Of a stretch of 58,620 bases of DNA, positions 8,387-57,319 are shown piece by piece. How positions within the stretch are numbered: the stretch's first letter is position 1; each line of letters starts with the position of its first letter. The position numbers were made by a program, and so were the translations under genes. A model generated the notes under the pieces. That model saw nothing but the letters and a program-made list of their open reading frames with translations, was not told where the DNA came from and searched no databases. Origin of the DNA: Clostridiaceae bacterium (GTDB lineage: Bacteria > Bacillota > Clostridia > Saccharofermentanales > DTU023); NCBI GenBank assembly GCA_012799825.1, contig JAAZKK010000082.1:1-58620 (forward strand). Direction: 5' to 3'.

Positions 8387-8538
8387 CGAAAACAGGGCTC
8401 CTGTGAGCGTAGTACCCGCTCAGTCCACTTAAGCCCAATCACTCAACTCGATCTCTCAGTCACTCAGTTATAAGCCGGTCACTCACCATCGATCAATTAG
8501 GTGCTCAGCTGATCAAGCTATGTGTAAAGATGCGAGTA

Positions 8539-8607
8539 TTTGAGGAAAAAGTGTGTATAATCAGGCTAATGAGAAAGAGCAGAGAGTATAAGAGCTATTT
8601 CTCGAGT
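8539..8607 (+). promoter_or_regulatory. second copy of the CRISPR leader segment (contains TATAAT at 8556-8561)
   Basis: 63 of 69 positions are identical, counted by eye with no gaps, to 14406-14474 immediately upstream of the array. Confidence 0.7.
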
Positions 8608-8636
8608 CTTTAACCTTACCTATGAGGAATTGATAA
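8608..8636 (+). repeat. solitary CRISPR repeat unit (no spacer array attached)
   Basis: CTTTAACCTTACCTATGAGGAATTGATAA matches the array repeat consensus at 28 of 29 positions. Only the last base differs. Confidence 0.85.
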
Positions 8637-8743
8637 ACCTATGATTTGAATGTATTATCTCTTGAGTATCAGAGCAATTGAAGCCTGCCGACATTGCCTC
8701 AACATAACTCCAACGAATCAGGGCATATGAGGAGCATGAAGAA

Positions 8744-10192
8744 ATGTACAATTTTGAACATTATCTGACTAGACGATTTATCTCAAATAGTTCTTATTAT
8801 CTAAGAAAAGATGAGCTCCAGTTTTACCCTTTTTTAAACCAAAAGTTCTTAAAAGCAATCTTGGATGAAAATCCAATTGAAATTAGAGAGTCAGTTCAAG
8901 AACAACTCCCTTGTCCTCTTACAGTTATTCTTGGTCAGCTTTTACTTTATTCAGACATGATTCATAAAGTGATTGACAAACTACAACACATGATCCGTGA
9001 TGTCGATCAAGGCAACATTTCGGTTGCCGACCTTGTGTACGATTTCTTTTCATTTGTCATCAATACATTTGAGAATCCGGACAATCCGATATTCGCATCT
9101 TTTATTGACTATAATTGGTTATGTGCAAGCTTTCGGCCAGAACGTTCCACGGATGAATTTTCCGAGTTAGCTGAGAATATTGAATATTTTTCATCGTTTG
9201 CAGGTCATAAGCGTTTCATTGATGAAATAACAAGCAACTTAACGGACACAGAATTAATCGCCTATTCAAAAGAATTAATATATGCGAATGGTCACGAACT
9301 CGGAGAAAATAACAATATACAGCAATACTTGTATCACATCGCAGACGTGTTCTTAATAAATTATGAAACGTCACCGGATGAAATGACGACCGACGATTTT
9401 ATTATCTCAGCTCAAAGCGCAATAAGTATACTCAACAGCATTCTGGACAACAAACTTAGCTTGAAATACAAGAACATTGATCATGTGACCTTTATTAAAA
9501 AAATGAGGCCTATTCTTCGAAAAGATTACTCTTTTATTTCGGAGATCGTTTCCATCAACGGATTTCTTGATTCCGGGCTTTCAGAAAGAAGTAAAGCCAT
9601 CTTTTTAGCTGACTTAAAAGCCGAATATATCATTCGATTTTGGAAATCATTAAAAGAAAGATCCGAGGAAATATATGACAAATACATTTTCTTTAAACAC
9701 TTTAATGGATCTGTCGAATTGTCGAATTATATTCGCAAACACAATTTCCCTCATATTAATAAGAATGCTGCTAATTTCTACAAGAAAATTAATAACTCGG
9801 ATTTAGTTTCTTGGTCAGATCTTGCTGCTTATCTATGGCTAGCAGAAAATGATATCAATATGGAGTTGCTGCTTTATCAATGCATGGATGAAATTAATAG
9901 TGAAGTTATCGTAAATAGACGACATATTTTCCCCTACTATCTAGAATTGGCGGATCAACGAATCATCGTGTTGGAAGAGTACTCAGGAGCTAAATTAGGT
10001 TATGATAACCCGTATGCCAAGAAGTCGACATACAGAAATTTAGAGTATCAATTCTGGGATGCCGAGACACGCTGTTTCGTGAAAAGAAAAGTCCAATTCC
10101 ACCGCGAACCTATAACAGGTGAATGTTACGAGACGTATGAGCCTAGAGCAATCTATGTCCCCTACATACCCCATCTCCCTTACCTGTTGTAG
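8744..10192 (+). CDS. hypothetical protein (482 aa), no recognisable domain
   Basis: Long ORF in an AT-rich island. GAGGAG Shine-Dalgarno sequence lies 9 nt before the ATG. It is on the same strand as, and 108 nt downstream of, the solitary leader-repeat unit. Confidence 0.75.
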   Translation: MYNFEHYLTRRFISNSSYYLRKDELQFYPFLNQKFLKAILDENPIEIRESVQEQLPCPLTVILGQLLLYSDMIHKVIDKLQHMIRDVDQGNISVADLVYDFFSFVINTFENPDNPIFASFIDYNWLCASFRPERSTDEFSELAENIEYFSSFAGHKRFIDEITSNLTDTELIAYSKELIYANGHELGENNNIQQYLYHIADVFLINYETSPDEMTTDDFIISAQSAISILNSILDNKLSLKYKNIDHVTFIKKMRPILRKDYSFISEIVSINGFLDSGLSERSKAIFLADLKAEYIIRFWKSLKERSEEIYDKYIFFKHFNGSVELSNYIRKHNFPHINKNAANFYKKINNSDLVSWSDLAAYLWLAENDINMELLLYQCMDEINSEVIVNRRHIFPYYLELADQRIIVLEEYSGAKLGYDNPYAKKSTYRNLEYQFWDAETRCFVKRKVQFHREPITGECYETYEPRAIYVPYIPHLPYLL

Positions 10193-10217
10193 CTGATCTC
10201 ATTCCTCATCGAGAACG

Positions 10218-10685
10218 CTATTCTGCCAACCATATTATTAAAATCCCAACTATCCAAAAAAAACAGTACTCTATGAGTTTTTTAGAATCATTTCGGCAAT
10301 CATTAGTCACTTTCATTTTTTTTATGAAACCTAGTTCTAAGATCTCATAAAGAACTACTCCGTACAACATACGCAGTTGCCGTCGATGATATGGGTCTGT
10401 AGCCGGTTTAGAATCTTTCAAGTGACGAGCGGCTTCGAAACACATCTCTTTGATTATTTCATCACTCCATCCGCTTTCTTCACGGATTTGACGGAGAAAT
10501 GCAAGCATTTCAGATCGATGATGATAGTAACCATTTTCCATGTCGTTCGGCAAATAAATTATTAGCGAGAGAAGATCAAAACGATGAATCATCTCTTCGA
10601 TGATAAGACTTCTTTGGAGCTCATCATAATTTGATTCGTCGCTGTCAGTACCTTCACCGTTGTGTTTCGATATTCTCATGCCCAT
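10218..10685 (-). CDS. hypothetical small protein (155 aa) with a single C-terminal transmembrane helix
   Basis: AGGTGA Shine-Dalgarno sequence 6 nt before the ATG. Acidic N-terminus and a C-terminal hydrophobic stretch, YCFFWIVGILIIWLA. Convergent with the 482-aa gene across a 25-nt gap. Confidence 0.6.
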   Translation of the reverse strand: MGMRISKHNGEGTDSDESNYDELQRSLIIEEMIHRFDLLSLIIYLPNDMENGYYHHRSEMLAFLRQIREESGWSDEIIKEMCFEAARHLKDSKPATDPYHRRQLRMLYGVVLYEILELGFIKKMKVTNDCRNDSKKLIEYCFFWIVGILIIWLAE

Positions 10686-10952
10686 TGTTTTTCACCTGAC
10701 ACTGTTTTCTGATTAACAATAGTACGATTGATTTAGTATAAACAGTTTCTTCCATTCGAAAATAATCACTTCTTTATCAGATGTCTGCTCTATGTTTTTA
10801 CACATTCCTCGGGTATTATCAGGCGACTCTATGGGTCTTATTTCTTTAGATCTAAGATAGTACCACTCCGCTTTGTCAGGCTAGACATGTTCATAGTAAA
10901 AGTCTCCTGGTTTTGTGACGTGCTTTCACATCTTTGAAATATCCGAGTTAGT

Positions 10953-12743
10953 CTAATTCTCAAATTTGCTTAAAAGAAAATTGGTAATGCCCAGATACGC
11001 TTCATACTTCTTGGGATTTGCTTGATAGAGACGCTCGTAAATCTCCTTCGATTGCAGATGACACGCTTTCGCTTTATTAAACTGGCCTTGGTCATCATAA
11101 AAAAGCCCTAAAATATCGCAAGTCGCGGCAAGATCCTCTCCAAAGCGATCGGGATTCTGCCGAAACAATTGCTCTATTATTTTCTTTGATTGGAGATAAT
11201 ACTGTTCCGCTATTTCAAGCTGACCTTGATCATCATATAAAACACCAAGATTGCCATAAATTGTCGCAAGATCCTCTTCATGGAGATCGGGATTCAACTG
11301 CGATAAACGCTCTCTAATTTCCATCGCTTGAAGAAAGCATCTTATCGATTCCTCAAACTGAGTTTGCTTATAGTAATGTGTCCCCAAATTCTTGCAAGAT
11401 AAAGCCAGATCTCCCTCATAAAAACCATGGCCATTCTTAGCGAGATATTCTCTGATCTCCCTTGATTTCAGATAAGATTTCTCCGCTTTGTCCGCTAGAC
11501 CTTGTTTACAGTATAGAGTTCCAAGAAGATCGAATAAGGTCGCGCGGTCCTTTTGTAGAGGATTTTCTAAATCGTATGTTTTCTCAAGCTTTTCTGCTAT
11601 TTGAATCGATTTTTGAACTTTGTTATGTTTCAGAAGGTATACTGCATATTCATAGACGGCATCAAACTCGATACTTTCCCTCAAGGCTACCTTGGTAATC
11701 TTTTCGTAGCAATCAGTAATGTCATCAAAGCAAGCAATGTAGCCCACCATGGTTCCTAGGATATCTATCCTCGTCCGGTATTCGCGGATGTAACGTGACG
11801 ATAGTGTCTTAATCTCTTCTTCCTCACCTTGCTTTCGTTTTTCGTAATCATCGTCTATTTCTTTCGGATCCAGAATACGGAGACAGCCATAGCAGTCTCC
11901 GCGCTCGAATAACGAATACGCCTTGCTCTGTCGTACCGTCACATCACCACTTAGTATTCCTCGACTCATTGACAAGGTCACCTCAAAGATCAGCTTTTCG
12001 AGCTCATTAATTTCATCGATCAAAGACTGCCGATCCACAGCAAGTTGTTCATACATCTCTTCTGCCTGAACATCCAACTTGCCCACAGTATACTTCGCTT
12101 TTTCGGCATAGTACTTTAGATTGATCTTCTCTAATTTCATTTTCAGGCTTTGTAGCGGAGCATGATTGAAAAATTCGTCAACTTTATTTAACGACAGATC
12201 ATCTTCTCCAATTTCAATTCCCTCAATCCAAATCTTCCCGGATGTCACAATAAGGTTGATATGATCGCCACTTAATATTTTCAGTGCCTGTAAAATTCGC
12301 AACTTCACCGTCTCGATATCACTAAAACGATCGCTATAGTATTCATACTTTTTTTCCAAAAGTTTGCGAAATTCCAAAGTACTTTGATTAAACCCTTCTT
12401 CGCCGGTCGTTTCTTTAAAAGAGATATAGACCTTGGGCTTTCCACACTTTCGGAAGGCTCCGATCGCCTTCTCACTCCCCTCGACTGCGAATTGTCCTGT
12501 GCGCGTAAAGAAGATAAATAAACTCAGGTCACTGCTACGTAGTTGTTCATTGTAACCATCTTGTTTCCGAGACAGATAGACCGCATCGTCAGAGGCATCA
12601 CAGATAAGAAGTTCAAACTCGATTCTGCACCGATCCTTAAGTAAAGCACTCATGCGTCTAATAAAAAGTTCGATCGTTTTTCGTTCACTCTGAAAATCAA
12701 TAAGCGAAGGGCCAAGGAAGATTGTGATGCTTTTTTTGACCAT
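10953..12743 (-). CDS. TIR-like/DUF4062-like N-terminal domain + coiled coil + TPR-repeat protein (596 aa)
   Basis: The N-terminus (ITIFLGPSLIDFQSERK ... SDLSLFIFFTRTGQFAVEGSEKAIGAFRKCGKPKVYISFKE) follows the beta-alpha pattern of DUF4062/TIR-like domains. The C-terminal third has at least 4 TPR-like units (LGTLYCKQGLADKAEKSY, LGTHYYKQTQFEESIRCF, LGVLYDDQGQLEIAEQYY, LGLFYDDQGQFNKAKACH). Confidence 0.65.
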   Translation of the reverse strand: MVKKSITIFLGPSLIDFQSERKTIELFIRRMSALLKDRCRIEFELLICDASDDAVYLSRKQDGYNEQLRSSDLSLFIFFTRTGQFAVEGSEKAIGAFRKCGKPKVYISFKETTGEEGFNQSTLEFRKLLEKKYEYYSDRFSDIETVKLRILQALKILSGDHINLIVTSGKIWIEGIEIGEDDLSLNKVDEFFNHAPLQSLKMKLEKINLKYYAEKAKYTVGKLDVQAEEMYEQLAVDRQSLIDEINELEKLIFEVTLSMSRGILSGDVTVRQSKAYSLFERGDCYGCLRILDPKEIDDDYEKRKQGEEEEIKTLSSRYIREYRTRIDILGTMVGYIACFDDITDCYEKITKVALRESIEFDAVYEYAVYLLKHNKVQKSIQIAEKLEKTYDLENPLQKDRATLFDLLGTLYCKQGLADKAEKSYLKSREIREYLAKNGHGFYEGDLALSCKNLGTHYYKQTQFEESIRCFLQAMEIRERLSQLNPDLHEEDLATIYGNLGVLYDDQGQLEIAEQYYLQSKKIIEQLFRQNPDRFGEDLAATCDILGLFYDDQGQFNKAKACHLQSKEIYERLYQANPKKYEAYLGITNFLLSKFEN

Positions 12744-12840
12744 ATTTATAGACCCACTCTACAGAACTTTTGAAATAGTAAACCCCATTTCTAAAATTTA
12801 TTATACCGTCTTTATTCCAGTATTTCTGTCGTAATCTTTT

Positions 12841-12943
12841 CCGCTCTTTCCTGCTAACCTCGTGCTTGGCAAGTTTTCACGCGTCGACACAAACCATATG
12901 CTTTTGTTGTGACCGCTTTCCTGCTAACCTCGTTCTTTGCAAG
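12841..12943. repeat. two direct copies of a ~31-nt element, 70-nt period, in the promoter region of the TIR-like/TPR gene
   Basis: CCGCTCTTTCCTGCTAACCTCGTGCTTGGCAAG (12841-12873) versus CCGCTTTCCTGCTAACCTCGTTCTTTGCAAG (12913-12943). The 17-nt core TTTCCTGCTAACCTCGT is identical in both. Confidence 0.55.
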
Positions 12944-13027
12944 ATACTCCTATATGGCAACAAGCTACGGCCGGATTCTTTTCATAGCACTCCTCGTAGC
13001 TTTTAGGAAGATGCGCAACGAATTCTT

Positions 13028-13945
13028 CTATTCATCCTCCATTCCTGTCATTCTCAAACGATATTCACTTAACCTAGTGTCATTCTCTTGCCATTCTCGA
13101 TATTTCATCCACAGAGGATGGTTGCTGAAGATCTCGTAATCGCTTATTTCTCCAACATCTTCAGGTTTACGATTTCCCAAATGATGCGAATAGCGAGACA
13201 AGCTAAAATAGAAATGCATTTCCTTCCCGCGAACATACAGAGCAATGTCACGGTCGAAGGAATCGTCCATGTATCCCCTTAAAAAGCCTTTGCACTGGAA
13301 CTTCTTATCACTCCCACTAGTGTCTTCCACAGAAAGTATTACCAGTTCCGCCTCGGATCCATTTTCAAGTAAGAGCTGCAGCCGTTTACCAAGCTCATTT
13401 TCAAAATTCGGCAAGATGCTCCCTTGTGCTATCAGGCTCGTTACACAAACATCGGAAGAAAAAGCATAGGTGTGTAATACACGTAACCCAGGAAATGTGA
13501 TTCTTTCCGGAAGAGGATAAGGCTTCAATAATTCTATCGGATAATAGATGCCATCCATCCACGAAAGCACCTCCTGACGCACCTTTGCCGACGTCCCCTT
13601 CCCGTCTGAGAGAGTAATAAGCCAAGGTGTTTCATGTTTTTCCACAAGCGGCACGCCCTCATGGAAATGTTTCCAGTCTTTACAAAACGCCAAATACACC
13701 TCTTCCGATTGAAATTCGAATAAGACCCGTCCATAAGGACTACGACACTGCTTTGCATCCAACCCCAAGCTTTGAAGCTTCTCTCGCAGATCAATGGCAC
13801 TCTCAAGTAAACATTCAATATATTTTGAGCTATTCAATAGCCCCATGGAATATCGCATGTTCAAATGCTGGCACTTAGCGATTTCTTCATTGCGATATTC
13901 TTTCAGTCCGTTCAAGTACAGCTCCTCTGATGTCTGTGCATTCAT
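13028..13945 (-). CDS. hypothetical protein (305 aa), no recognisable domain
   Basis: GAAGGAG Shine-Dalgarno sequence 9 nt before the ATG. Transcribed divergently from the CRISPR leader, with which it shares a 460-bp control region. Confidence 0.65.
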   Translation of the reverse strand: MNAQTSEELYLNGLKEYRNEEIAKCQHLNMRYSMGLLNSSKYIECLLESAIDLREKLQSLGLDAKQCRSPYGRVLFEFQSEEVYLAFCKDWKHFHEGVPLVEKHETPWLITLSDGKGTSAKVRQEVLSWMDGIYYPIELLKPYPLPERITFPGLRVLHTYAFSSDVCVTSLIAQGSILPNFENELGKRLQLLLENGSEAELVILSVEDTSGSDKKFQCKGFLRGYMDDSFDRDIALYVRGKEMHFYFSLSRYSHHLGNRKPEDVGEISDYEIFSNHPLWMKYREWQENDTRLSEYRLRMTGMEDE

Positions 13946-14194
13946 TCTGTAACGCTCCTTCGATTATGCAAACTTTAAACGATTGCGGACAATATTGCTA
14001 TTCGCTCTCCCATGATGTTAATCAAGTCTATCACCCGCAAAAAATTGGAATTGTCACATAAACATTATCACTGGGTTGTCGAGTAAAATAAAGCTTATCC
14101 TTACATAGTTTTGGTTCAATCATCTTTTGGCACGGCACTGTCAAGGATCTTTCGCAGATTGGGCTTGTAATGGTTTATTCCAATATAATCGACT

Positions 14195-14408
14195 AAAAAG
14201 TCCGTCAATCGATCTAGCTTGATATTTCAGCCTTTGCGTGACTTTTTCTGTAGCAAAATGAGGAGAAAATGGCCTAAAAGTTGCCATTTTCGATCAAAAA
14301 GTCCGTCGATCTCCTGAACAAGAACTCACAAAATGGACGAAGTGGAAATAAGCTTGATATATCAAGGAAAATAAGTCATTGATGAAAAAACGATTGACGG
14401 AGTTTTTT
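14195..14408. repeat. three copies of a 17-nt motif (two direct, one inverted) in the leader-proximal intergenic region
   Basis: AAAAAGTCCGTCAATCG at 14195-14211. AAAAAGTCCGTC(-)GATCT at 14296-14312. Reverse complement AAAAACTCCGTCAATCG at 14391-14407, abutting the conserved leader. Confidence 0.45.
14353..14366. promoter_or_regulatory. perfect 14-bp palindrome, candidate operator
   Basis: CTTGATATATCAAG is its own reverse complement. It lies about 55 nt upstream of the leader TATAAT. The half-site AGCTTGAT recurs at 14216 and, inverted, near 8510 upstream of the other leader copy. Confidence 0.35.
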
Positions 14409-14474
14409 AAGGAAAAAGTGTGTATAATGAGGATAATGAGAAAGAGCAGAGAGTATAAGGGCCTTTTCTCGAGT
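14406..14474 (+). promoter_or_regulatory. CRISPR leader (conserved segment, TATAAT at 14423-14428)
   Basis: AT-rich sequence directly upstream of repeat 1 and duplicated at 8539-8607. The degenerate repeats lie at the far end of the array, which supports + strand transcription. Confidence 0.7.
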
Positions 14475-15075
14475 CTTTAACCTTACCTATGAGGAATTGA
14501 TACCTCTCTAGGCAAGTAGACAATAAAATCGCGACCTACTTTAACCTTACCTATGAGGAATTGATACTATCAGGCTTCAGAAGATGTTTTTTCCTGTCAA
14601 ACCCTTTAACCTTACCTATGAGGAATTGATACATTTCGTGCCGTCTCTCTGCATCTTTATAATTTTCTTTAACCTTACCTATGAGGAATTGATACAGTTT
14701 GCCGCAAGCTGATTTAATTTCGATGGGCTTCTTTAACCTTACCTATGAGGAATTGATACGTTAAGGCGACTAAGGTTATAGTGCCGAGGATTTTCTTTAA
14801 CCTTACCTATGAGGAATTGATACGCTTGTACAAAGATAGTTCCAAAACTTTCTTTATCTTTAACCTTACCTATGAGGAATTGATACCTTAAAGCGTTCCC
14901 ATTTAAAGCGACTAGCCTTGCTTTAACCTTATCTATGAGGAATTGATACACGTCAACGGTCAGCGACTTATCTGCGATGCTCCTTTAACCTTACCTATGA
15001 GGAATTGATACGCGAGCCTCTCCAAGAAAAAGATGATCGTAAAGGTCTTTAACCTTACCTATGAGGAATTGATAT
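14475..15075 (+). CRISPR. CRISPR array: 10 repeats of 29 nt (30 nt if a usually-T preceding base is included) and 9 unique spacers of 33-36 nt
   Basis: Repeat CTTTAACCTTACCTATGAGGAATTGATAC starts at 14475, 14539, 14604, 14667, 14731, 14795, 14858, 14921, 14983 and 15047. Repeat 8 has one C>T change at 14932. The last repeat ends in T instead of C. The 3' end ATTGATAC resembles the ATTGAAAC-type 8-nt crRNA handle. Confidence 0.95.
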
Positions 15076-15449
15076 GTTATATTCAGAGATGTTAAGATCT
15101 CATGATCTTTTGAGATCACTTAGTAGAACCTAATCTGAGTAATTGCGAAGCAAATCAAAAGTCATTATCTTGTCGTTACAAATGATTGAGGCTTTTATGA
15201 TTTGAATATACTGTTGAAGATGAGGATATTACCTTTTTTCTTTTCCTTTAATTTTTGCTTGCTCGACAACTCGATAAAGAATGATGAAGCCATGTCTGTT
15301 TAAAATGATGCGATACATATCGTTCCTTGGAATGTTCTGAGAAAAATGAAAAAGATATCGGGAAATTAGACAAAGGCAAACAGGGGTAATAAGTTTCGCG
15401 GTTCATCCAGATGACTTTGGCACTGAGCAAAACACCTATTGCGATAAAC

Positions 15450-16826
15450 TCATGGGAAAAGTCGACGAGCGACCTCGATTTTAGAGGCCATCTGCAGCGC
15501 CTCAGGCGCAACTAAATCAATTAAACGGAGGGTTGTCCTGTTTGGAAGCGTCATCAAAAGTTGATGATCTTGTACACATACAGCAAGCGCGTAATCCTCG
15601 CGACCATCGACGCGATAAAAGAGAAGATCGCCTTCGCGAAACACTGACAGATCAGGGATCCCGTCGATCTTCGGAATCGTCAACGACTCTCCGGCATTTA
15701 AAAGCCCCTCTGTCGTTCGAGTAAGATCCATGCCGATCAAGCGCGATGCCACGAAAATAGCGCCTTCGGGTGACATTCCCTGCATGGTAGCGCCAGATGG
15801 AACGTACGGTGTTCGAAAAAACCGACGGACAGTTGAGGCAAAGACTGTCTGCGGGTCATCTTCAGTCATCAAAGGTTCCGATACAGGCCCTGTGAGCACA
15901 CCGCTTCCGCTGATCCATCCTGAACCGCCGCCGGGCATAATGACGCGAAAAAGATCGCCGCGCCGATAATCTGCAAAAAAGATGCTGCCCATTGGGGCTT
16001 CCGTAAGAAGTGTCCCCTGATACGCATGGCTCATGATGCGTTTACAGGTATCCACGACAAGCACACGGGCAATGGCGCCCGCAGGGTTCACCGAACGCGT
16101 TCCGGCTGCTAACAGGTCACGCCTGACGTAACCTTCAACGCCGTCTTCAAGACGAATTTTAAACCACAGCGCTCCTTGTGTTTCCAGAATAACGCACGGC
16201 TCATTAAACAGAGCGTCGGCCACGCGAGGCGCCTTCAGATCGGGAGATGCGAGTATAGGAGCAAATGACGCCGCGATTACCGCGTCAGCGGGATGATCAG
16301 GCAGCTCCCCTGATGAAGAAGATAACGTCTCGACAGGCGGCGGACTCTCAGGGACACGACCGACCAGACCGGGCACCACAATAAAGAGACCTGCCATCAT
16401 CAGGAAAAAGACGATAATTGCCAACACCCAAGGCGGCCATTTCGATTTTTTAGCGTCGAGATACACGGGGCGACGCGCTCTTTTGCTGTCGCCGTCGCTT
16501 GGCTCGCCGGACTCATGGATAGGCTCGCGCGCGATAGAGATCCTTTCAAGGTCTTTAACACGTTTATTTTTTTTAGTTGAAGACTCGTGAGATCTTGAGA
16601 GCTTTTTGAGGTCTTCGACGCGTTCATTTTTTTCGGTTAAAGGATCGCGAGATTTTGAAATATTTTCGAGGTTATCGCCGCATTGATTTCCTACGGTTGA
16701 AGATTCATGAATGTTAAAGATCTTATTTAGATCTTCGCCATTTTGATTTTCTGCGGTTGAAGGCTCGAAAGTTTTAGAGATATTATCGTCGTTTTGCCGT
16801 TTTTCAGATCGATTGTCCTCGGTCAT
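15450..16826 (-). CDS. membrane-anchored protein with an N-terminal 20-aa tandem repeat region, one TM helix and a C-terminal SH3-like + degenerate NlpC/P60-like domain
   Basis: TM helix WPPWVLAIIVFFLMMAGLFIVVPGLV. The C-terminus resembles NlpC/P60 (GDLLFY motif), but the position of the catalytic DCSG reads MSPEG. Confidence 0.6.
   Translation of the reverse strand: MTEDNRSEKRQNDDNISKTFEPSTAENQNGEDLNKIFNIHESSTVGNQCGDNLENISKSRDPLTEKNERVEDLKKLSRSHESSTKKNKRVKDLERISIAREPIHESGEPSDGDSKRARRPVYLDAKKSKWPPWVLAIIVFFLMMAGLFIVVPGLVGRVPESPPPVETLSSSSGELPDHPADAVIAASFAPILASPDLKAPRVADALFNEPCVILETQGALWFKIRLEDGVEGYVRRDLLAAGTRSVNPAGAIARVLVVDTCKRIMSHAYQGTLLTEAPMGSIFFADYRRGDLFRVIMPGGGSGWISGSGVLTGPVSEPLMTEDDPQTVFASTVRRFFRTPYVPSGATMQGMSPEGAIFVASRLIGMDLTRTTEGLLNAGESLTIPKIDGIPDLSVFREGDLLFYRVDGREDYALAVCVQDHQLLMTLPNRTTLRLIDLVAPEALQMASKIEVARRLFP
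16497..16796 (-). repeat. in-frame imperfect tandem repeat, about 5 x 60 nt (20 aa)
   Basis: Protein periodicity: ..DLNKIFNIHESSTVGNQCG / DNLENISKSRDPLTEKNERV / EDLKKLSRSHESSTKKNKRV / KDLERISIAREPIHESGEPS. Conserved D-L and S-T positions recur exactly 20 residues apart. Confidence 0.6.
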
Positions 16827-41584: not shown

Positions 41585-43012
41585 TTAAGCTTTAAGCGCG
41601 GACATGCGCGCTGCACTCATACCCAAAGACTTCAGCTCTCTTTTCATCAGGCGCAGCGCAATGTCACTCTCCCGTTCGGCGAGCACGCCCATCGCAGCGA
41701 GAATGTAGTTTTCATCAAGCCATATTTCGGCTTCCAACGGGCGCAAGGACAGCGGGCTTTCCTCTGAATAAAGCGCGTGTTCGGCAATGGACTTCGGATC
41801 AGACGCATGAATGACCGATCCGCCTGTAAGTAAAATATGACGAATGGCGCGCAAGTCTTTGCCGGTCTGGACGTACACGATGCCGGACGTCGTATACGCT
41901 TCTTCTAAAGTACCGGCGTGACGTGTCGTCGCGATATCGACAGCGCTCGATGCAAGTGCCAGATCAAGCAGGACCGAGTTCGGATCGTCCGCCGTCGGCA
42001 CATAGGCTTTGTCATCGGCGATATTTGCCAAATAATGACGGACGTCGTCTTCACTCACACCGGCTTTTGCAGCAAGGTTTTCCGTACCAACGACGTCATT
42101 AATACCCGATGCGCTATAGCGCATACCAATGTCGCCTTCGACTGTTCGCTTGGCGTACGGTTCCTCTAAACCTTTTAATACGACACTGACATCAGTAGGA
42201 TGACCTTCAGCAATGGAATACACATCGGTTGTCGCCCCGCCCACATCAACGGCAAACAGCTCGCCAATGCCTGCCTCGCGCTCCGTACCTGTCGCAAGGA
42301 GCTTCACCGCGGAAAGTACGGCAGAAGGCGTCGGCATCAGAATTCCTGAAAGCAGGCTCGTTGCCTTCGTCATCCCGCGCGCCCGAATAATATGCGTCAG
42401 AAACAATGAGCGGATCGCCCGTTGAACCGGCTCGACGTTCAACTTGTTAAAACGAGGCATGACGTTCGGGCAGACCGTCACTTCAAAGTCTCGAAGGAGA
42501 TCTTCACAGTCATCGGAGGCGTCGCGATTGCCGGCAATAATAACCGGAAAACGTACGCTTAAGCGAGCAAGCGCTGACGCATTATCCGTGATAACCGCCC
42601 GATTTCCTCCATCTGTGCCTCCAGTCAAAAGTAAAATATCGGGCGGATTTGCCTCGATAAGAGCCAAATCCCGTCGGCCGAGACGGTGTGTGAAGATCCG
42701 CGTAATCTTCGCTCCGGCGCCTAGAGCTGCCAAGCGACCTGCTTCAGCCGTCAACTCTGGCACCAAGCCGGAGACCATCATACGCAAACCGCCCGCCGCC
42801 GAAGAACAGGCAAGGCGGTACTCGTACGAAAGAGCGCCCGTCTTCTGTTCCAGCTGCTTTATCGCCAGTGCAAGGCCATCGCCGATGTCGTGATCGACCG
42901 TCGTAAAAGCAGAAGCGTGACCGAGCAGCACTTCTTCATCGAGATCGACGGCTGTCACTTTCGTAAACGTGCTGCCAAAATCAATCAGTAGTACGGGACG
43001 CACCTTCTTCAA
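41585..43012 (-). CDS. glmL: glutamate mutase-associated chaperone/reactivase (MutL/GlmL)
   Basis: 475 aa. ASKHA-type [13 protein letters not shown]-terminus. Positioned between glmS and glmE. Confidence 0.85.
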
Positions 43013-43427
43013 CCCCGAGATCTTTCTTCAACCAATAGATCGTTGTCTCCGGCGGTGTGCCCGGCGGAAACACGCGATTAAAGCCCATCGCATGAAATCG
43101 TTTCTCGACATCGGAAAACTCCTGTTTGCCGACAACGATGTTGCCACCGACGTAGAGAAGAATGCCTTCGAGACCCGCCTCATCACACTTATCGCGCAAA
43201 CCGCGGCAGTCCAACTCGCCATGGCCATAAAGTGAAGAGACAACGATCGCGTCAGCATTCGTTTCAATCGCGGCTCCGATGTACTCCTCCTGCGAAACCA
43301 TCACTCCGAGGTTTGTGACATCGAATCCGGCATCTGTGAAGGCATAATCAAGTATTCGGATGCCGACAGCATGTACATCGGCGCCGATGACACCGATGAC
43401 CAGTTTTTTCCTATTTGATTCCTGCAT
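42981..43427 (-). CDS. glmS: glutamate mutase sigma (B12-binding) subunit
   Basis: B12-binding DxHxxG (GADVHAVG) and [18 protein letters not shown]. The ATG at 43427 is preceded by GAGGA. Confidence 0.9.
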
Positions 43428-43653
43428 GTTGATCCTCACGTTCTTTTTGACGCTTTCCCCGCCATTTTTATATCATTCATGTATTTTTGAGTTTCTTTTC
43501 TATGAGCTTATATGCACCTCCATGCGCTTAATTTTTTGCATTTTATTGTATCCGCACCGGTGAAACATATTCTCAATCATCTAAATACATGTCACCATTT
43601 GAAGAATGAAAAACTCAAAGTGCGCGAAGTCAACGTACCCGCGCGTCGATCTC

Positions 43654-44689: not shown

Positions 44690-45292
44690 TCACTTTCCCG
44701 CGATAATATCGTCTGCATCAACGTCGTGCATCACGCGCCAACCGGCAGGACCTTCTTCATAAAGGTCGCTACCATCCGTATCGATGGCAACCGTCACAGG
44801 AAAGTCGCGCACGCGTATCAAACGAAGCGCTTCCGTTCCGAGATCCTCCCAACAGATAACCTCCGACGATTCTATAGAATGTGAAAGCAGCGCGCCCGCT
44901 CCGCCCGTAGCGGCAAAATATACACATCCATAACGCCTCATCGCATTGATCACCTCCGGACTGCGACGTCCTTTGCCGATCATGCCGCCAAGCCCGCGGG
45001 AGATCAGCGCCGGCGCGTATGGATCCATGCGGTAAGATGTCGTCGGCCCGGCAGATCCCATCGCATATCCCGGAAGCGGCGGCGTCGGCCCTACATAAAA
45101 AATGACGGCGCCTTCTAAAGGAAAAGGCGATTCCTCACCGCGTTCTAAAAGCGCGACAAGACGTTGATGTCCGGCATCTCGAAGCGTGTACATCGGTCCT
45201 GTAAGGAGAACGCGCTCACCCATTCGAAAGCTTGTAGCCATCTCCTTTGTCAGCGGTAAAGTCACACGCCGTACCTCTTCGTTTCGATCCAT
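44690..45292 (-). CDS. class I Fe-S hydro-lyase beta subunit (fumarate hydratase/tartrate dehydratase type; probable mesaconase)
   Basis: GPTTSYRMD and YFAATGGAGAL motifs. The ATG at 45292 shares one base with the alpha-subunit TAA and is preceded by AGGAGG at 7 nt. Confidence 0.85.
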   Translation of the reverse strand: MDRNEEVRRVTLPLTKEMATSFRMGERVLLTGPMYTLRDAGHQRLVALLERGEESPFPLEGAVIFYVGPTPPLPGYAMGSAGPTTSYRMDPYAPALISRGLGGMIGKGRRSPEVINAMRRYGCVYFAATGGAGALLSHSIESSEVICWEDLGTEALRLIRVRDFPVTVAIDTDGSDLYEEGPAGWRVMHDVDADDIIAGK

Positions 45293-46134
45293 TACAACAC
45301 CTCCTGTCGATGACGTGTCGCATGGCAATTGAGATTACAGGCGACCGGCAATCCGGCAATATGCGTCGGCGCGACGTTCACAGCTAATGAAAGCGCTGTC
45401 GTTCGCCCGCCGAATCCTTGCGGTCCAATACCGAGTTGATTGATCTTTTCAAGTAGGGATTCTTCAAAATAAGCGTAAAACGGATCCGGGTGGCGTTCTC
45501 CAATAGGACGTGCAAGTGCCCGTTTGGCAAGCAACGCAACATGGTCGAACGTTCCGCCAATGCCTACCCCGACAACAAGCGGCGGACAGGCGTTAGGTCC
45601 GGCAAGTTTAACCGTTTCAAGGACAAACGCTTCTACACCTTCCAAGCCGTCTGCGGGGCGCAACATGGCAAGCCGGCTCATATTCTCGCTTCCAAAGCCT
45701 TTGGCTAAAAGCGTCACGGTCACGCGATCCCCGGGAACGATTCGAATCGTCGTGATAGCAGGCGTATTGTCACCGGTATTGACACGTCTTAGCGGATCTC
45801 CCACCACCGACATGCGCAAAAAGTATTTCTTGTAGCCGCGCCGAATGCCTTCATTGATCGCTTCGTAAGGGTCACCGGAAAAATGCACATCTCGTCCGAC
45901 ATCGAGAAAAACAACAGCCATTCCCGTATCCTGGCATAATGGAATGCGTTCTCTTCGCGCGACACGCGCGTTCTCTAAAAGTTCGGAAAGGAGGGCACTC
46001 GCATGTTCGCCATCTTCAAGATCCAATGAAGATGCAATCGCCTGTTCAACGTCATAGGGAAGGTCACACGCGTTTTCGCCACACATGCGTTCGATCGAAT
46101 CAGTCAAACGCATTACATCAAATTCTCTGATCAT
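45292..46134 (-). CDS. class I Fe-S hydro-lyase alpha subunit (probable mesaconase)
   Basis: 280 aa. PLCQDTGMAVVFLDVG is the typical class I fumarase N-terminal domain motif. Confidence 0.85.
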   Translation of the reverse strand: MIREFDVMRLTDSIERMCGENACDLPYDVEQAIASSLDLEDGEHASALLSELLENARVARRERIPLCQDTGMAVVFLDVGRDVHFSGDPYEAINEGIRRGYKKYFLRMSVVGDPLRRVNTGDNTPAITTIRIVPGDRVTVTLLAKGFGSENMSRLAMLRPADGLEGVEAFVLETVKLAGPNACPPLVVGVGIGGTFDHVALLAKRALARPIGERHPDPFYAYFEESLLEKINQLGIGPQGFGGRTTALSLAVNVAPTHIAGLPVACNLNCHATRHRQEVL

Positions 46135-54988: not shown

Positions 54989-57319
54989 TTACTTACTTTT
55001 GCCCGGCGGAACCTCTTCGGTCATGATCACGAATTGAACACTTGCCACATCTTTGTTCTTGTCTGACGCATATGAACGGATTTCATACCCGTCTCCTGAG
55101 AGTTCGTCGAGTTTCTCCTGAATGGCCGTCATAAATTTCTCGCGGAGATCTTTCGTTTCCTCCATCAATTTCTGAGCGCCCTCATCAAACTCAGTGATAC
55201 CCTCCTCATATGGAGTCATTCCTTTATCCTGATATTCGCCAAGACCGCTTTGAAAACGTTCGACACCGTTTACGTAAGCGGATACGCCGCTGCCCGTCTT
55301 AGATACGCCTTGGGAAAGTGTGCTCCCCGCGTTTTTAAGCGTACTGCCCTGATTGGCGAGCGTACTTAAGCCCTGTCTAATGCTTGCCGACCCCTGAATC
55401 AGACCGGGGTTGCCCGCACTGCCCTCAAAACCGGTGAGCAAACCGCCGATGCCTTCGGTCATATAGAGCGTAAGACCTTGATGGAATCCTACCTGTTTAT
55501 TGCCACATGCATCCGGTACCGGATTTCCTTGGGAATCGTAGACGCCGGCATACCCATTCCTTAATGCATGAATGCCATAGTAGAGTTGAGAGTATTGCTC
55601 CATCACGTCTTCCGTAGACGTTCCTGCCGAATCGGCAAGGGCTCGTATCCGATCACGGATCATGACGATTGCGTCATGAATCCCCGGATTATGTGAACCA
55701 TCAGCACCTGTCGTGCCGTAGTACGCATCGTCGAGTTGACGAAGGCCGTCGTACAACTGATGTGCACCGGAAACGAGCGCAGGGACACCCGAAGCCTGAT
55801 CCGTCAGTCCGGTCAGCGTCGATTGGAGCAACGTATAGGAGGCGACATAACCTGCGACAATCTGCGCCATCGTCGTGCGATATTGAGTGACTTTCTCAGG
55901 ATCGCCGGTGATCACGATGCCTTCATACAGAGCTAGGACATCTTCAAACGATGTAACTTGCGGCACCGGAATCTGATCGGCAGCTTGCTTAGCCATTGCA
56001 AGCGAACTATTGAGCGTTACAAGGCCCTGCCAAAGCTGATACATGCCGCCGTCCGATTTGCCGATGGCGTGAAGACCGTCGCGGAACTGCTCGGAACCTG
56101 CGACGAGCTGATCCAGCTGTGCAAGATCGGCTTCACTGAATGACGGCAACTGCGCCGTCATCTCGTCAGGATGCGGCAGTTTGGACGCCAACTCGTTCAA
56201 GCCGTCACGAATCGATGACGAAGCTGTCAGAAGTGTTTTTCCCTCGCTGTTTAACGTCTTCACGCCGGAATGCATCTCCGATAGGCCTTTGTCGAACTGG
56301 TTGTAACCTGTAGATGCCTTTTTGGCACCGTCCACATATTGAGAAACGCCGGACGTGTACTGATTCACGCCGCTCTTTAGCTGATTAACTCCGGCAGCAA
56401 GTTGTTGGCCGCCATGCACAAGCTCATAACTCCCCCCTCTTAGTTCGTCGAAAGCGCCCATAAGATCGCCGTATCCGGTGCGAAGGCGCTCACTGCCCTC
56501 GGCAAAAGCAGCAATACCTTCGGACAACTCATCGAGCGGAGCAAATTCATCTTCATACATGGAAAGGTCAAGGTTTAAAGACAGCGGAACACCGGCAAAC
56601 GTCATCTGTCCCATGTGGAAATCTTCCACATCGAGCTCAACTTTCATTATCGCCTCTTCTCCCGGCAATACAATTGATGTGAATTGTTGCGTAGAACCGG
56701 CGTACGCCAACATGAGATTGTCGGATGCCGAAACAACACGAGCACAACTGGGATCAATCGGGATGGTAACCTGCAATGCATAATGGTCAAAGTAGCCGCC
56801 TCCGACATCTTTATTCTCTCGAATGGCCAATTCAATTACCAAGCGACCATTTGCGCCGGAAAGATCTTTTGGCAAATACATATGGTCGTCGAGACGGTAA
56901 CTGATGATGATTGTCCACGGAAGCTCTCGCGTTCTCAAATTGCCTTGGTAGTAATAATGGCCTTTAGCGCAATCTGTAGTCACTTTACCATTTTCATATG
57001 TCAGCGGCTGGTCGCCTGTAAGCTGAACGACTTTCTCGTAATCGCCGTAATCGACGATGGTCTTCTGCTCGGCAGGCTGAAAATGATTGACGACATACAG
57101 TTGTTCGACTTGTCCTACGGCATCAAGTTTCCCGTAAATGACTTCACGTTTTGCCGTACCGTCCGTCGGAATCATGATCGGGCCATTGCCGCGCTCTGCT
57201 TGAACGAGAGGCGGAACATACGTCACCATGAACGCGACGATAAACAGCACGACCGTTACGCGCTTCAGGAATTGCAGCACGGATCGGCTTCGCCGTCCTA
57301 AACGATAGGATGATTTCAT
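54989..57319 (-). CDS. membrane-anchored YhgE/Pip-like protein with long Leu/Gly heptad-type repeats
   Basis: N-terminal TM VTVVLFIVAFMVTYVPPLV. Repeated segments such as QLAAGVNQLKSGVNQYTSGVSQYVDGAKK. Its ATG shares one base with the stop of the upstream MMPL gene. Confidence 0.6.
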   Translation of the reverse strand: MKSSYRLGRRSRSVLQFLKRVTVVLFIVAFMVTYVPPLVQAERGNGPIMIPTDGTAKREVIYGKLDAVGQVEQLYVVNHFQPAEQKTIVDYGDYEKVVQLTGDQPLTYENGKVTTDCAKGHYYYQGNLRTRELPWTIIISYRLDDHMYLPKDLSGANGRLVIELAIRENKDVGGGYFDHYALQVTIPIDPSCARVVSASDNLMLAYAGSTQQFTSIVLPGEEAIMKVELDVEDFHMGQMTFAGVPLSLNLDLSMYEDEFAPLDELSEGIAAFAEGSERLRTGYGDLMGAFDELRGGSYELVHGGQQLAAGVNQLKSGVNQYTSGVSQYVDGAKKASTGYNQFDKGLSEMHSGVKTLNSEGKTLLTASSSIRDGLNELASKLPHPDEMTAQLPSFSEADLAQLDQLVAGSEQFRDGLHAIGKSDGGMYQLWQGLVTLNSSLAMAKQAADQIPVPQVTSFEDVLALYEGIVITGDPEKVTQYRTTMAQIVAGYVASYTLLQSTLTGLTDQASGVPALVSGAHQLYDGLRQLDDAYYGTTGADGSHNPGIHDAIVMIRDRIRALADSAGTSTEDVMEQYSQLYYGIHALRNGYAGVYDSQGNPVPDACGNKQVGFHQGLTLYMTEGIGGLLTGFEGSAGNPGLIQGSASIRQGLSTLANQGSTLKNAGSTLSQGVSKTGSGVSAYVNGVERFQSGLGEYQDKGMTPYEEGITEFDEGAQKLMEETKDLREKFMTAIQEKLDELSGDGYEIRSYASDKNKDVASVQFVIMTEEVPPGKSK

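Follow-up and report, generated by a model that had tools for sequence, protein, structure and literature searches.

An isolated CRISPR array in a probably acquired island of a Clostridiaceae bacterium, and a type III-B operon most likely in the same genome

Shmakov et al., in 2020, reportedly provided a general survey of 'CRISPR arrays away from cas genes'. An example of such an isolated (cas-distal) array is CR3 of Pseudomonas aeruginosa ATCC 10145 (PMC13142298), and type III-B systems with a reverse transcriptase (RT) fused to Cas1 have been described as well (PMC5513706, PMC5541045), as have phage-borne solitary repeat units that mimic host repeats, the Racrs (PMC10651486). In a different field of bacterial immunity, the DUF4062 (NIR) domain is the TIR-like NADase effector of the single-gene abortive-infection systems Vulcan, Swarozyc and Evangelion, in which an aromatic residue comes directly after the catalytic Glu (E98 in Vulcan; E87-Y88 in Eva01) (10.64898/2026.09.04.749371, 10.64898/2026.05.01.722283, 10.64898/2026.06.25.731849). 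Here we analyse a contig of a Clostridiaceae bacterium (JAAZKK010000082.1, assembly GCA_012799825.1; the whole stretch of 58,620 nucleotides is called the window) in which a ten-repeat CRISPR array and a solitary repeat, each preceded by a copy of the same leader, enclose four genes, A to D. Our results make it probable that this locus is an acquired island of about 7 kb that carries an isolated array of a type III-B system encoded elsewhere, most likely in the same genome, with the four genes as cargo.

The locus is a bona fide CRISPR array, with ten 29-nt repeats (CTTTAACCTTACCTATGAGGAATTGATAC) spaced 62-65 nt from start to start and nine spacers, each of them different and 33-36 nt long. 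Among the repeats eight share one sequence, from which another departs at one internal position and the terminal one at its final base only, the last-base changes being C>T in this terminal array repeat and C>A in the solitary repeat. A 27-nt core of the repeat was counted 11 times in the window, at 8609 and ten times within 14476-15074, where shuffled sequences gave an expectation of 0. The first-pass annotation, made from the sequence alone, had described a leader and repeat present twice, a single repeat at one end and ten at the other, and sequence identity past both loci; all of this was reproduced. The duplication is a 97-nt direct repeat of 94% identity (8539-8635 and 14406-14502; leader 63/69, repeat 28/29), and the identity beyond it is a 15-nt motif (TATGATTTGAATRTA) found in the 58.6 kb at 8640 and 15196 only, with 0.02 occurrences expected. 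A target-site duplication or an att core was considered for this motif, which occurs neither in the empty sites of relatives nor in the cas locus described below.

The same annotation had judged by eye that the interior is AT-richer than its surroundings, and computation confirmed this, with a GC content of 0.35-0.43 across about 8.0-15.5 kb of the window and about 0.50 in both flanks, so the segment is compositionally foreign. The syntenic site was also compared in relatives, as had been proposed. In two congeneric metagenome-assembled genomes (MAGs; L024 and L025), whose BMP protein is 94-95% and PFOR 92% identical, the SH3 and BMP genes that border the island here are 302 and 193 nt apart, and 222 nt separate them in L026, a less closely related MAG (70%); at this site none of the three has the repeat or a homologue of A-D. 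Alignment with the relatives places the lineage-specific segment at about 8396-15400. Since BMP and SH3 are adjacent in the relatives, and arrays and A-D are both missing there, arrays and genes are absent together, as one island of about 7 kb, and since the array itself is absent from these sites there is no evidence that the array came first and the cassette later. These results suggest that the segment from 8.4 to 15.4 kb is a low-GC island acquired horizontally, an assessment that forms part of the overall reading given above and is, like it, probable.

The array had been described as Cas-less and orphan, and the first half of this description stood for the window: tblastn with Cas6, Cas10, RAMP, RT and Cas1 queries gave no match in the 58.6 kb, and together with the Pfam annotation of the other genes (outside the island the scan covered the open reading frames, or ORFs, of at least 150 aa except those at 42981-43439 and 44690-45328) this revealed no cas gene, integrase or transposase. 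Beyond the window the picture was different, since a type III-B operon with the same repeat occurs in the same samples and is joined to the window's sequences in three contigs. This partner locus was reached by a repeat scan of metagenomes, which led to locus L013, and then by using the RT gene of L005 as query, which led to L018, L019 and L022. In L013 the order is Cas6 gene, 2-repeat mini-array, leader and array, while L018, L019 and L022 read as a 386-aa gene, Cas10/Cmr2, Cmr3, Cmr4, a 139-aa gene, Cmr6, a 537-aa gene, Cas6, the 2-repeat mini-array, leader, a 5-repeat array, RT and an ISL3 transposase gene. The repeats of this Cmr locus are identical to those of the window. Leader copy 2 of the window (about 300 nt) is approximately 96% identical to the cas-locus leader, with about a dozen fixed differences, and leader copy 1 with its repeat (97 nt) is 92% identical to the cas-locus leader-repeat.

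Four of the Cmr-locus proteins exceeded their NCBIfam cut-offs (Cmr2, 98 bits against 79.4; Cmr4, 101.4 against 87; Cmr6, 122.5 against 51.1; Cas6, 108.9 against 58.65), Cmr3 scored 33 bits, under its cut-off of 100, and the 386-aa and 139-aa proteins, which match no model, sit where the Cmr1/Cmr5 subunits would be expected. The Cmr genes and Cas6 were called as full-length, gap-free ORFs, and Cas10 has the GGDD cyclase motif and lacks the N-terminal HD domain. Judged by gene content, this appears to be a complete type III-B (Cmr) operon with Cas6. Its GC content is as low as that of the island (0.37-0.43; 0.36-0.44 over both loci, with flanks at 0.48-0.52). The 537-aa protein between Cmr6 and Cas6 (L018:6675-8288) has no family match and two C-terminal hydrophobic helices, and could be an accessory effector in the membrane that works with this Cas10, which has GGDD and no HD.

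The RT of this locus is 100% identical to a 354-aa NCBI protein from a 'Clostridiaceae bacterium' MAG. Its nearest relatives are RT-Cas1 fusions of 635 aa, about 60% identical, to which it aligns over residues 1-351 only, and in L018 neither Cas1 nor Cas2 was seen within 6 kb past the RT. Since the alignment stops at 351 and no Cas1 follows in L018, the adaptation enzyme is truncated. An ISL3-family transposase gene, called as two ORFs, lies just downstream (L018:10001-12804), which suggests an ISL3 insertion as the cause of the truncation.

Outside this lineage, the exact repeat had 0 matches in 185,579 representative genomes, so the species representative, if there is one, lacks an assembled array, and it had 0 matches in IMG/VR. 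Variants of the repeat family were seen in two other contigs. The GC-rich contig L012 (JGI20166J26741_12030629) has two or three variant copies, for instance CTTCAACCTTACCTATGAGGAATTGATAC, so the repeat family spans hosts of very different composition. L011 (JGI994J12354_10002843), from an unrelated AT-rich organism, has a family member that differs by 1-2 nt, and a type III locus in which two short arrays enclose the genes of an 829-aa Cas10, RAMPs and Cas6; a fragmented RT-Cas1 and a tyrosine recombinase are present as well, so that RT-Cas1 is degraded there too.

Do the window array and the Cmr locus belong to one genome? The host of the window is an uncultured member of the Clostridia from biogas fermenters. 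Contigs with an identical BMP protein were found in at least 10 biogas metagenomes, all with the cassette, and in each of the six samples with the RT gene the window's BMP or SH3 gene occurs too. In ERZ778524 the contigs of the two loci have coverages of 5.78 and 5.16. Moreover three contigs join the loci reciprocally: L005 and L008 (the same as L020 and L021) run through BMP, A-D, leader, cas-locus spacers and RT, and L108 runs through Cmr, Cas6, mini-array, leader, the window's nine spacers, SH3, acpS and dnaI. Each join has one clean crossover, which falls in the leader interval from -139 to -84 in L005 and from -302 to -254 in L108; in L008 it lies within a 13-nt stretch (TTTTTTCCTGTCA) that cas-locus spacer 3 has in common with window spacer 2. 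Either true recombination or a switch made by the assembler at the near-identical leader produced these joins; an inversion between two arrays in inverse orientation would yield exactly these two junctions. The dominant layout is that of the window, whose join appears in at least 7 assemblies, with 4 separately showing Cas6-array-RT, and reads of both loci coexist under either interpretation of the joins. We also considered that the cas genes truly lie beside the cassette, as L005 would have it, and rejected this, since L013, L018, L019 and L022 put the same four spacers by Cas6 and the L005 leader is a single-crossover hybrid, which rules against L005 as the true genome order.

Location of the Cmr locus and the window array in one genome is thus the most likely arrangement. 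Since the loci co-occur in all six of these samples and three contigs join them, the term orphan, reserved for an array in a genome without cas genes, does not suit this array. Since its repeat is identical to that of the cas locus, its leader is homologous over about 300 nt and the 58.6-kb window has no cas genes, we classify it instead, with moderate to high confidence, as isolated in the terms of PMC13142298.

If this reading is right, the array would be transcribed from the leader of about 300 nt, Cas6 from the Cmr locus would cleave the resulting precursor CRISPR RNA (pre-crRNA), and the Cmr complex would take up the crRNAs in trans, with AUUGAUAC as the expected 8-nt tag of mature crRNAs. 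The 29-nt repeat ends at its 3' side in ATTGATAC, which is similar to the 8-nt handle, the consensus typical of Cas6-processed repeats. Since the only Cas1 found, RT-Cas1, is truncated after the RT, the spacer sets of both arrays are presumed to be frozen. Frozen spacer sets would fit the arrays being identical across reactors and years and the island being near-invariant among samples; the array was identical in every contig spanning it, from at least 4 samples, and partial contigs agreed over their extent. As for the layout of leader-repeat, cassette and leader-repeat, it would seem best explained by homologous recombination at leader-repeat units, through Campbell-type integration of a circle carrying one unit or through unequal exchange; the crossovers in L005, L008 and L108 indicate that leader and array sequences are at least prone to joining. 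The alternative origin, put forward at first reading, is that the whole leader-array-trailer unit was duplicated and one copy collapsed, and both the C>A and C>T last-base changes and the shared 15-nt motif fit it.

Several points weigh against an isolated array served in trans. All the evidence comes from metagenome contigs of biogas fermenters, among which there is no closed genome with both loci on one replicon, and the joining contigs could be assembler cross-overs. We infer transcription of the array and use of its crRNAs from sequence, and a second Cas1 may be encoded elsewhere in the genome. The spacers gave no support either: in the search of phage and plasmid databases that had been proposed, the whole array had no spacer match in GenBank phages or in PLSDB plasmids, where the only likeness was to distantly similar repeat arrays of Geobacillus plasmids, and IMG/VR gave 0 matches for the 24-nt cores of four of the nine window spacers (the two loci have 14 spacers in all). 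Nor was there self-targeting, with no spacer match outside the arrays in the window or in any fetched locus. Recombination alone, furthermore, leaves unexplained both the 15-nt direct repeat at 8640 and 15196 and the full 300-nt leader by the cassette as against the 69-nt outer leader. Finally, genes A and B appear unique, so that their sequences offer no argument about function in either direction.

Among the other explanations, the one that fares best, though we regard it as unlikely, is that the cassette is the remnant of a mobile element that brought its own leader and solitary repeat and integrated at a repeat or leader of an existing array, the repeat perhaps serving as an RNA decoy for Cas6 or Cmr. 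The X-Y-X layout, with the 97-nt direct repeats around 5.8 kb of AT-rich, largely homologue-free genes, would be explained in this way; the solitary repeat keeps a promoter-like leader, phage-borne units of the Racr kind offer a precedent, and recombination between phages and CRISPR loci is documented by Varble et al. 2019, as cited in PMC13142298. However the island contains no integrase, replication, structural or transfer gene, its repeat and genes were unmatched in 2.9 million viral contigs, and the relatives' sites, also devoid of the array, give no sign that an array was there to be invaded.

The remaining explanations turn on the four genes, which the first-pass annotation had proposed to be either an undescribed CRISPR-linked effector module or a defence-type cassette captured between array copies. 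The four ORFs were confirmed between the leader-repeat copies (Table 1). Good Shine-Dalgarno sequences had been claimed for all of them, which holds for A (GAGGAG) and D (GAAGGAG), those of B and C being weak. Proteins A, B and D had no match in Pfam, NCBIfam, PADLOC or PHROGs. For A, no homologue was found among 5.8 billion proteins, and none in IMG/VR or the PDB sequences. B had no family model and no match in the plasmid and phage collections, the two searched for it; its hydrophobic C-terminal stretch, which had led to its description as tail-anchored, is present and could be a tail anchor. D had no PDB sequence match and four distant relatives among 1.84 billion representative proteins, the nearest of them 38% identical, from a 68%-GC organism, and encoded beside a HAD hydrolase. 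IMG/VR held no relatives of D or of the C family.

Protein C had been called TIR-like/DUF4062-like with tetratricopeptide repeats (TPR), a description that holds at the family level. It has about 40 full-length homologues of 25-39% identity, in which the number of TPRs varies, and these are encoded by single or tandem genes among housekeeping genes. L017:8001-13113, for example, has a tandem pair of paralogues, and L115 (523-3195) has tandem truncated C paralogues, 53-57% identical, beside a RyR-domain protein. The AlphaFold2 (AF2) model of C is confident (pLDDT, the predicted local distance difference test score, 89.8) and begins with an alpha/beta head (1-160), followed by a small beta-sheet at 164-178 and a long helical stalk, with the TPRs towards the C terminus. 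Since Foldseek with the full-length protein returned TPR proteins only, the N-terminal domain was modelled separately (AF2 pLDDT 84.6). Its top Foldseek PDB match was nucleoside 2'-deoxyribosyltransferase (NDT; 8pqt, E 2e-5, template modelling or TM score only 0.45-0.54), the TIR domain of the plant protein RUN1 came at rank 12, and small GTPases and flavodoxin-like folds scored similarly.

Window C had no match to Pfam PF13271 (DUF4062) at E values up to 10, and PADLOC gave it a generic TPR match only. A distant family member, P0042, passed PF13271 (31.6 against 24.7 bits), and P0037, P0020 and P0017 stayed below the threshold; on these profile scores DUF4062 membership is not established for window C. 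In alignment A1 the position of the catalytic pair is Glu in 24/35 sequences and the next column Phe in 34/35, window C alone having Gly89-Ser90. Most family members keep Thr-x-x-Glu-Phe. A 10-member subfamily of about 840 aa (P0005, P0006 and P0013 among them) has Met-Arg-Ser-Cys-Phe in place of Thr-Arg-Glu-Glu-Phe at 86-90, which is, judged from the alignment, a second, independent loss of the putative catalytic Glu. By architecture C thus resembles an NIR-type sensor-effector, and NADase activity of window C itself is doubtful given its residues.

The homologues that were checked do not travel with CRISPR. The C homologue loci (L015-L017 and L115; 0/4) and the D homologue locus (L104; 0/1) lie near neither CRISPR or cas nor homologues of the other three genes, and tblastn with A-D against all loci fetched through the C and D homologues found only the gene that had recruited each locus; A, without relatives, can give no co-occurrence signal. 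The recurrence of A-D with this repeat family in other genomes, which had been proposed as a check, was not found at these loci: the four genes look like hitch-hiking cargo, and an undescribed, conserved CRISPR-linked module is not supported by their distribution. The defence-type cassette came closer, although among the four genes only C would be defence-like, by domain analogy and with its catalytic residues substituted. It had also been stated that a canonical cas operon with the same repeat, together with identical, cassette-free arrays in relatives, would speak against a CRISPR link; the operon is there, whereas cassette-free identical arrays were not found and the relatives have no array at all.

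The first of the two proposals, taken to mean that all or part of A-D serve the type III-B system as lineage-specific accessory or effector genes next to its second array, is quite improbable in our assessment. C or B might then act downstream of Cas10 signalling, and the duplicated leader might drive A, whose 5' untranslated region would hold a repeat that Cas6 can cleave. A Cas10 with GGDD and without HD, in an operon that holds a single candidate effector (the 537-aa protein), would leave room for such genes; leader copy 1 and the solitary repeat lie 108 nt upstream of A on the same strand, the cassette shares the low GC content of the cas operon, and the C family has a defence-type architecture. 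Nevertheless A-D contain no CARF, SAVED or other known cyclic-oligoadenylate sensor, PADLOC recognised nothing beyond the TPRs of C, C lacks the catalytic Glu-Phe pair, the homologues of C (4 loci) and D (1 locus) occur away from CRISPR/cas and from each other with A adding no signal, and no homologue of A-D occurs in L011, a locus of another organism that combines this repeat family with a type III system. A related idea, that leader copy 1 and the solitary repeat are a co-opted control element which puts A, and possibly the cassette, under the leader promoter and Cas6 processing, making A-D an accessory module of an adaptation-less type III-B system, is in our view highly improbable.

Equally hard to sustain is the notion that the array has lost its function and survives as a relic, a piece moved or copied from the cas-adjacent array and now neither expressed nor used, within an island of decaying junk, since the apparently dead adaptation with its truncated Cas1, the arrays invariant across samples, the lack of protospacer matches in the searches and the lost catalytic residues of C, all of which would suit it, are set against eight identical repeats out of ten with single changes in the other two, a promoter box (GTGTGTATAAT) conserved in all three leader copies, full-length and gap-free Cmr and Cas6 genes, long ORFs in DNA of 36-43% GC that would be unlikely to last without selection, and an island near-invariant among samples.

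The features of the island are listed in Table 1.

Table 1. Features of the island and its edges, in window coordinates
Feature	Position	Strand	Remark
Left island edge	8396..8538	.	likeness to the empty sites of L024 and L025 stops at ~8395
Leader copy 1	8539..8607	+	repeat-proximal 69 nt only, with the GTGTGTATAAT promoter-like box
Solitary CRISPR repeat	8608..8636	+	final base C>A, a position also changed in the terminal repeat
15-nt direct repeat, copy 1	8640..8654	+	TATGATTTGAATGTA
Gene A	8744..10192	+	482 aa, GC 0.357
Gene B	10218..10685	-	155 aa
Gene C	10953..12743	-	596 aa
Gene D	13028..13945	-	305 aa
Leader copy 2	14176..14474	+	full-length; near-identical to the leader of the cas-adjacent array
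CRISPR array	14475..15075	+	10 repeats and 9 spacers; last repeat ends in T
Trailer	15076..15195	+	possible degenerate repeat near 15122-15150, judged by eye
15-nt direct repeat, copy 2	15196..15210	+	TATGATTTGAATATA
Right island edge	15211..15400	.	L024 likeness returns at ~15400-15420

Just left of leader copy 1, at 8440-8530, a (T)CACTCA motif occurs three times, about 17-19 nt apart, in a segment that is not in the relatives' empty sites; a regulator may bind there, or the motif may belong to the promoter region of BMP. Rfam gave no match for the island at E values up to 0.1 and none for the whole window at the gathering score, and a promoter and terminator scan was uninformative (19 sites against 20 expected). 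The other genes of the window are housekeeping genes, for nucleoside ABC transport, acpS/dnaI/dnaD, PFOR, glycolysis, citrate lyase, the methylaspartate pathway and starch use. At 16544-16672, in the N-terminal low-complexity part of the 458-aa SH3-domain protein, there is a 60-nt tandem repeat of 2.2 copies with 75% matches. A 776-aa ORF at 54989-57319, with no Pfam match at E 1e-5, neighbours an MMPL-family protein and a dip in GC content (0.41-0.43 at 54.0-55.5 kb).

The value of these results is mainly corrective: an array that is cas-less in a 58-kb window had its cas operon on another contig, and an 'orphan array plus unknown genes' should not be called a new CRISPR-linked system before the genome or metagenome has been searched. 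The locus also shows, in a clean natural case, a type III-B system that has two arrays and whose RT-Cas1 is disabled. If the joins are real, CRISPR leaders would act as recombination substrates that rearrange the chromosome. Protein C, in turn, extends the recently described NIR NADase proteins by a Clostridia-wide family of DUF4062-like/TPR proteins, with some members lacking the catalytic Glu.

Set beside the systems described so far, the locus appears to add one more case to a known kind, that of the cas-distal array lying in an acquired island, here with homologue-poor cargo, including one degenerate NIR-like/TPR gene. As with the isolated array CR3, it is distant from the cas operon, shares the repeat of the cas-adjacent array and resembles that array in its leader, is part of an acquired segment absent from relatives, and is presumed to be served in trans. 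Unlike CR3, it belongs to a type III-B system with an RT-Cas1 remnant, and not to type I-F, adaptation seemingly being disabled; a partial leader and a solitary repeat, together with the array, flank a four-gene cassette, and its use in trans is inferred. The partner locus shares Cas10/Cmr2 with GGDD, a putative Cmr3, Cmr4, Cmr6, Cas6 and the RT with the type III-B systems that have RT-Cas1, and differs in that its RT-Cas1 is cut after residue 351, with an ISL3 gene downstream and no Cas2 seen, and in lying outside the window.

The lone repeat resembles the Racrs in being identical to the host's repeat, in having a leader-like sequence with a promoter-like box and in not being followed by a series of spacers and repeats. 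In contrast to Racrs, it is chromosomal and stands beside a full array, in an island without a recognisable mobility or viral gene, and the repeat is unmatched in IMG/VR. The C family resembles Vulcan (NIR plus HEAT), Swarozyc and Evangelion in its head, which is putatively TIR-like, and in its helical-repeat C-terminal region; between these parts lie a small beta-sheet and a stalk of helices, as in KpSwz. Window C departs from these proteins in having no DUF4062 hit and in carrying Gly-Ser for the Glu-aromatic pair; its repeats are TPR, where those of Vulcan are HEAT, and its homologues are found among housekeeping genes and not in defence islands.

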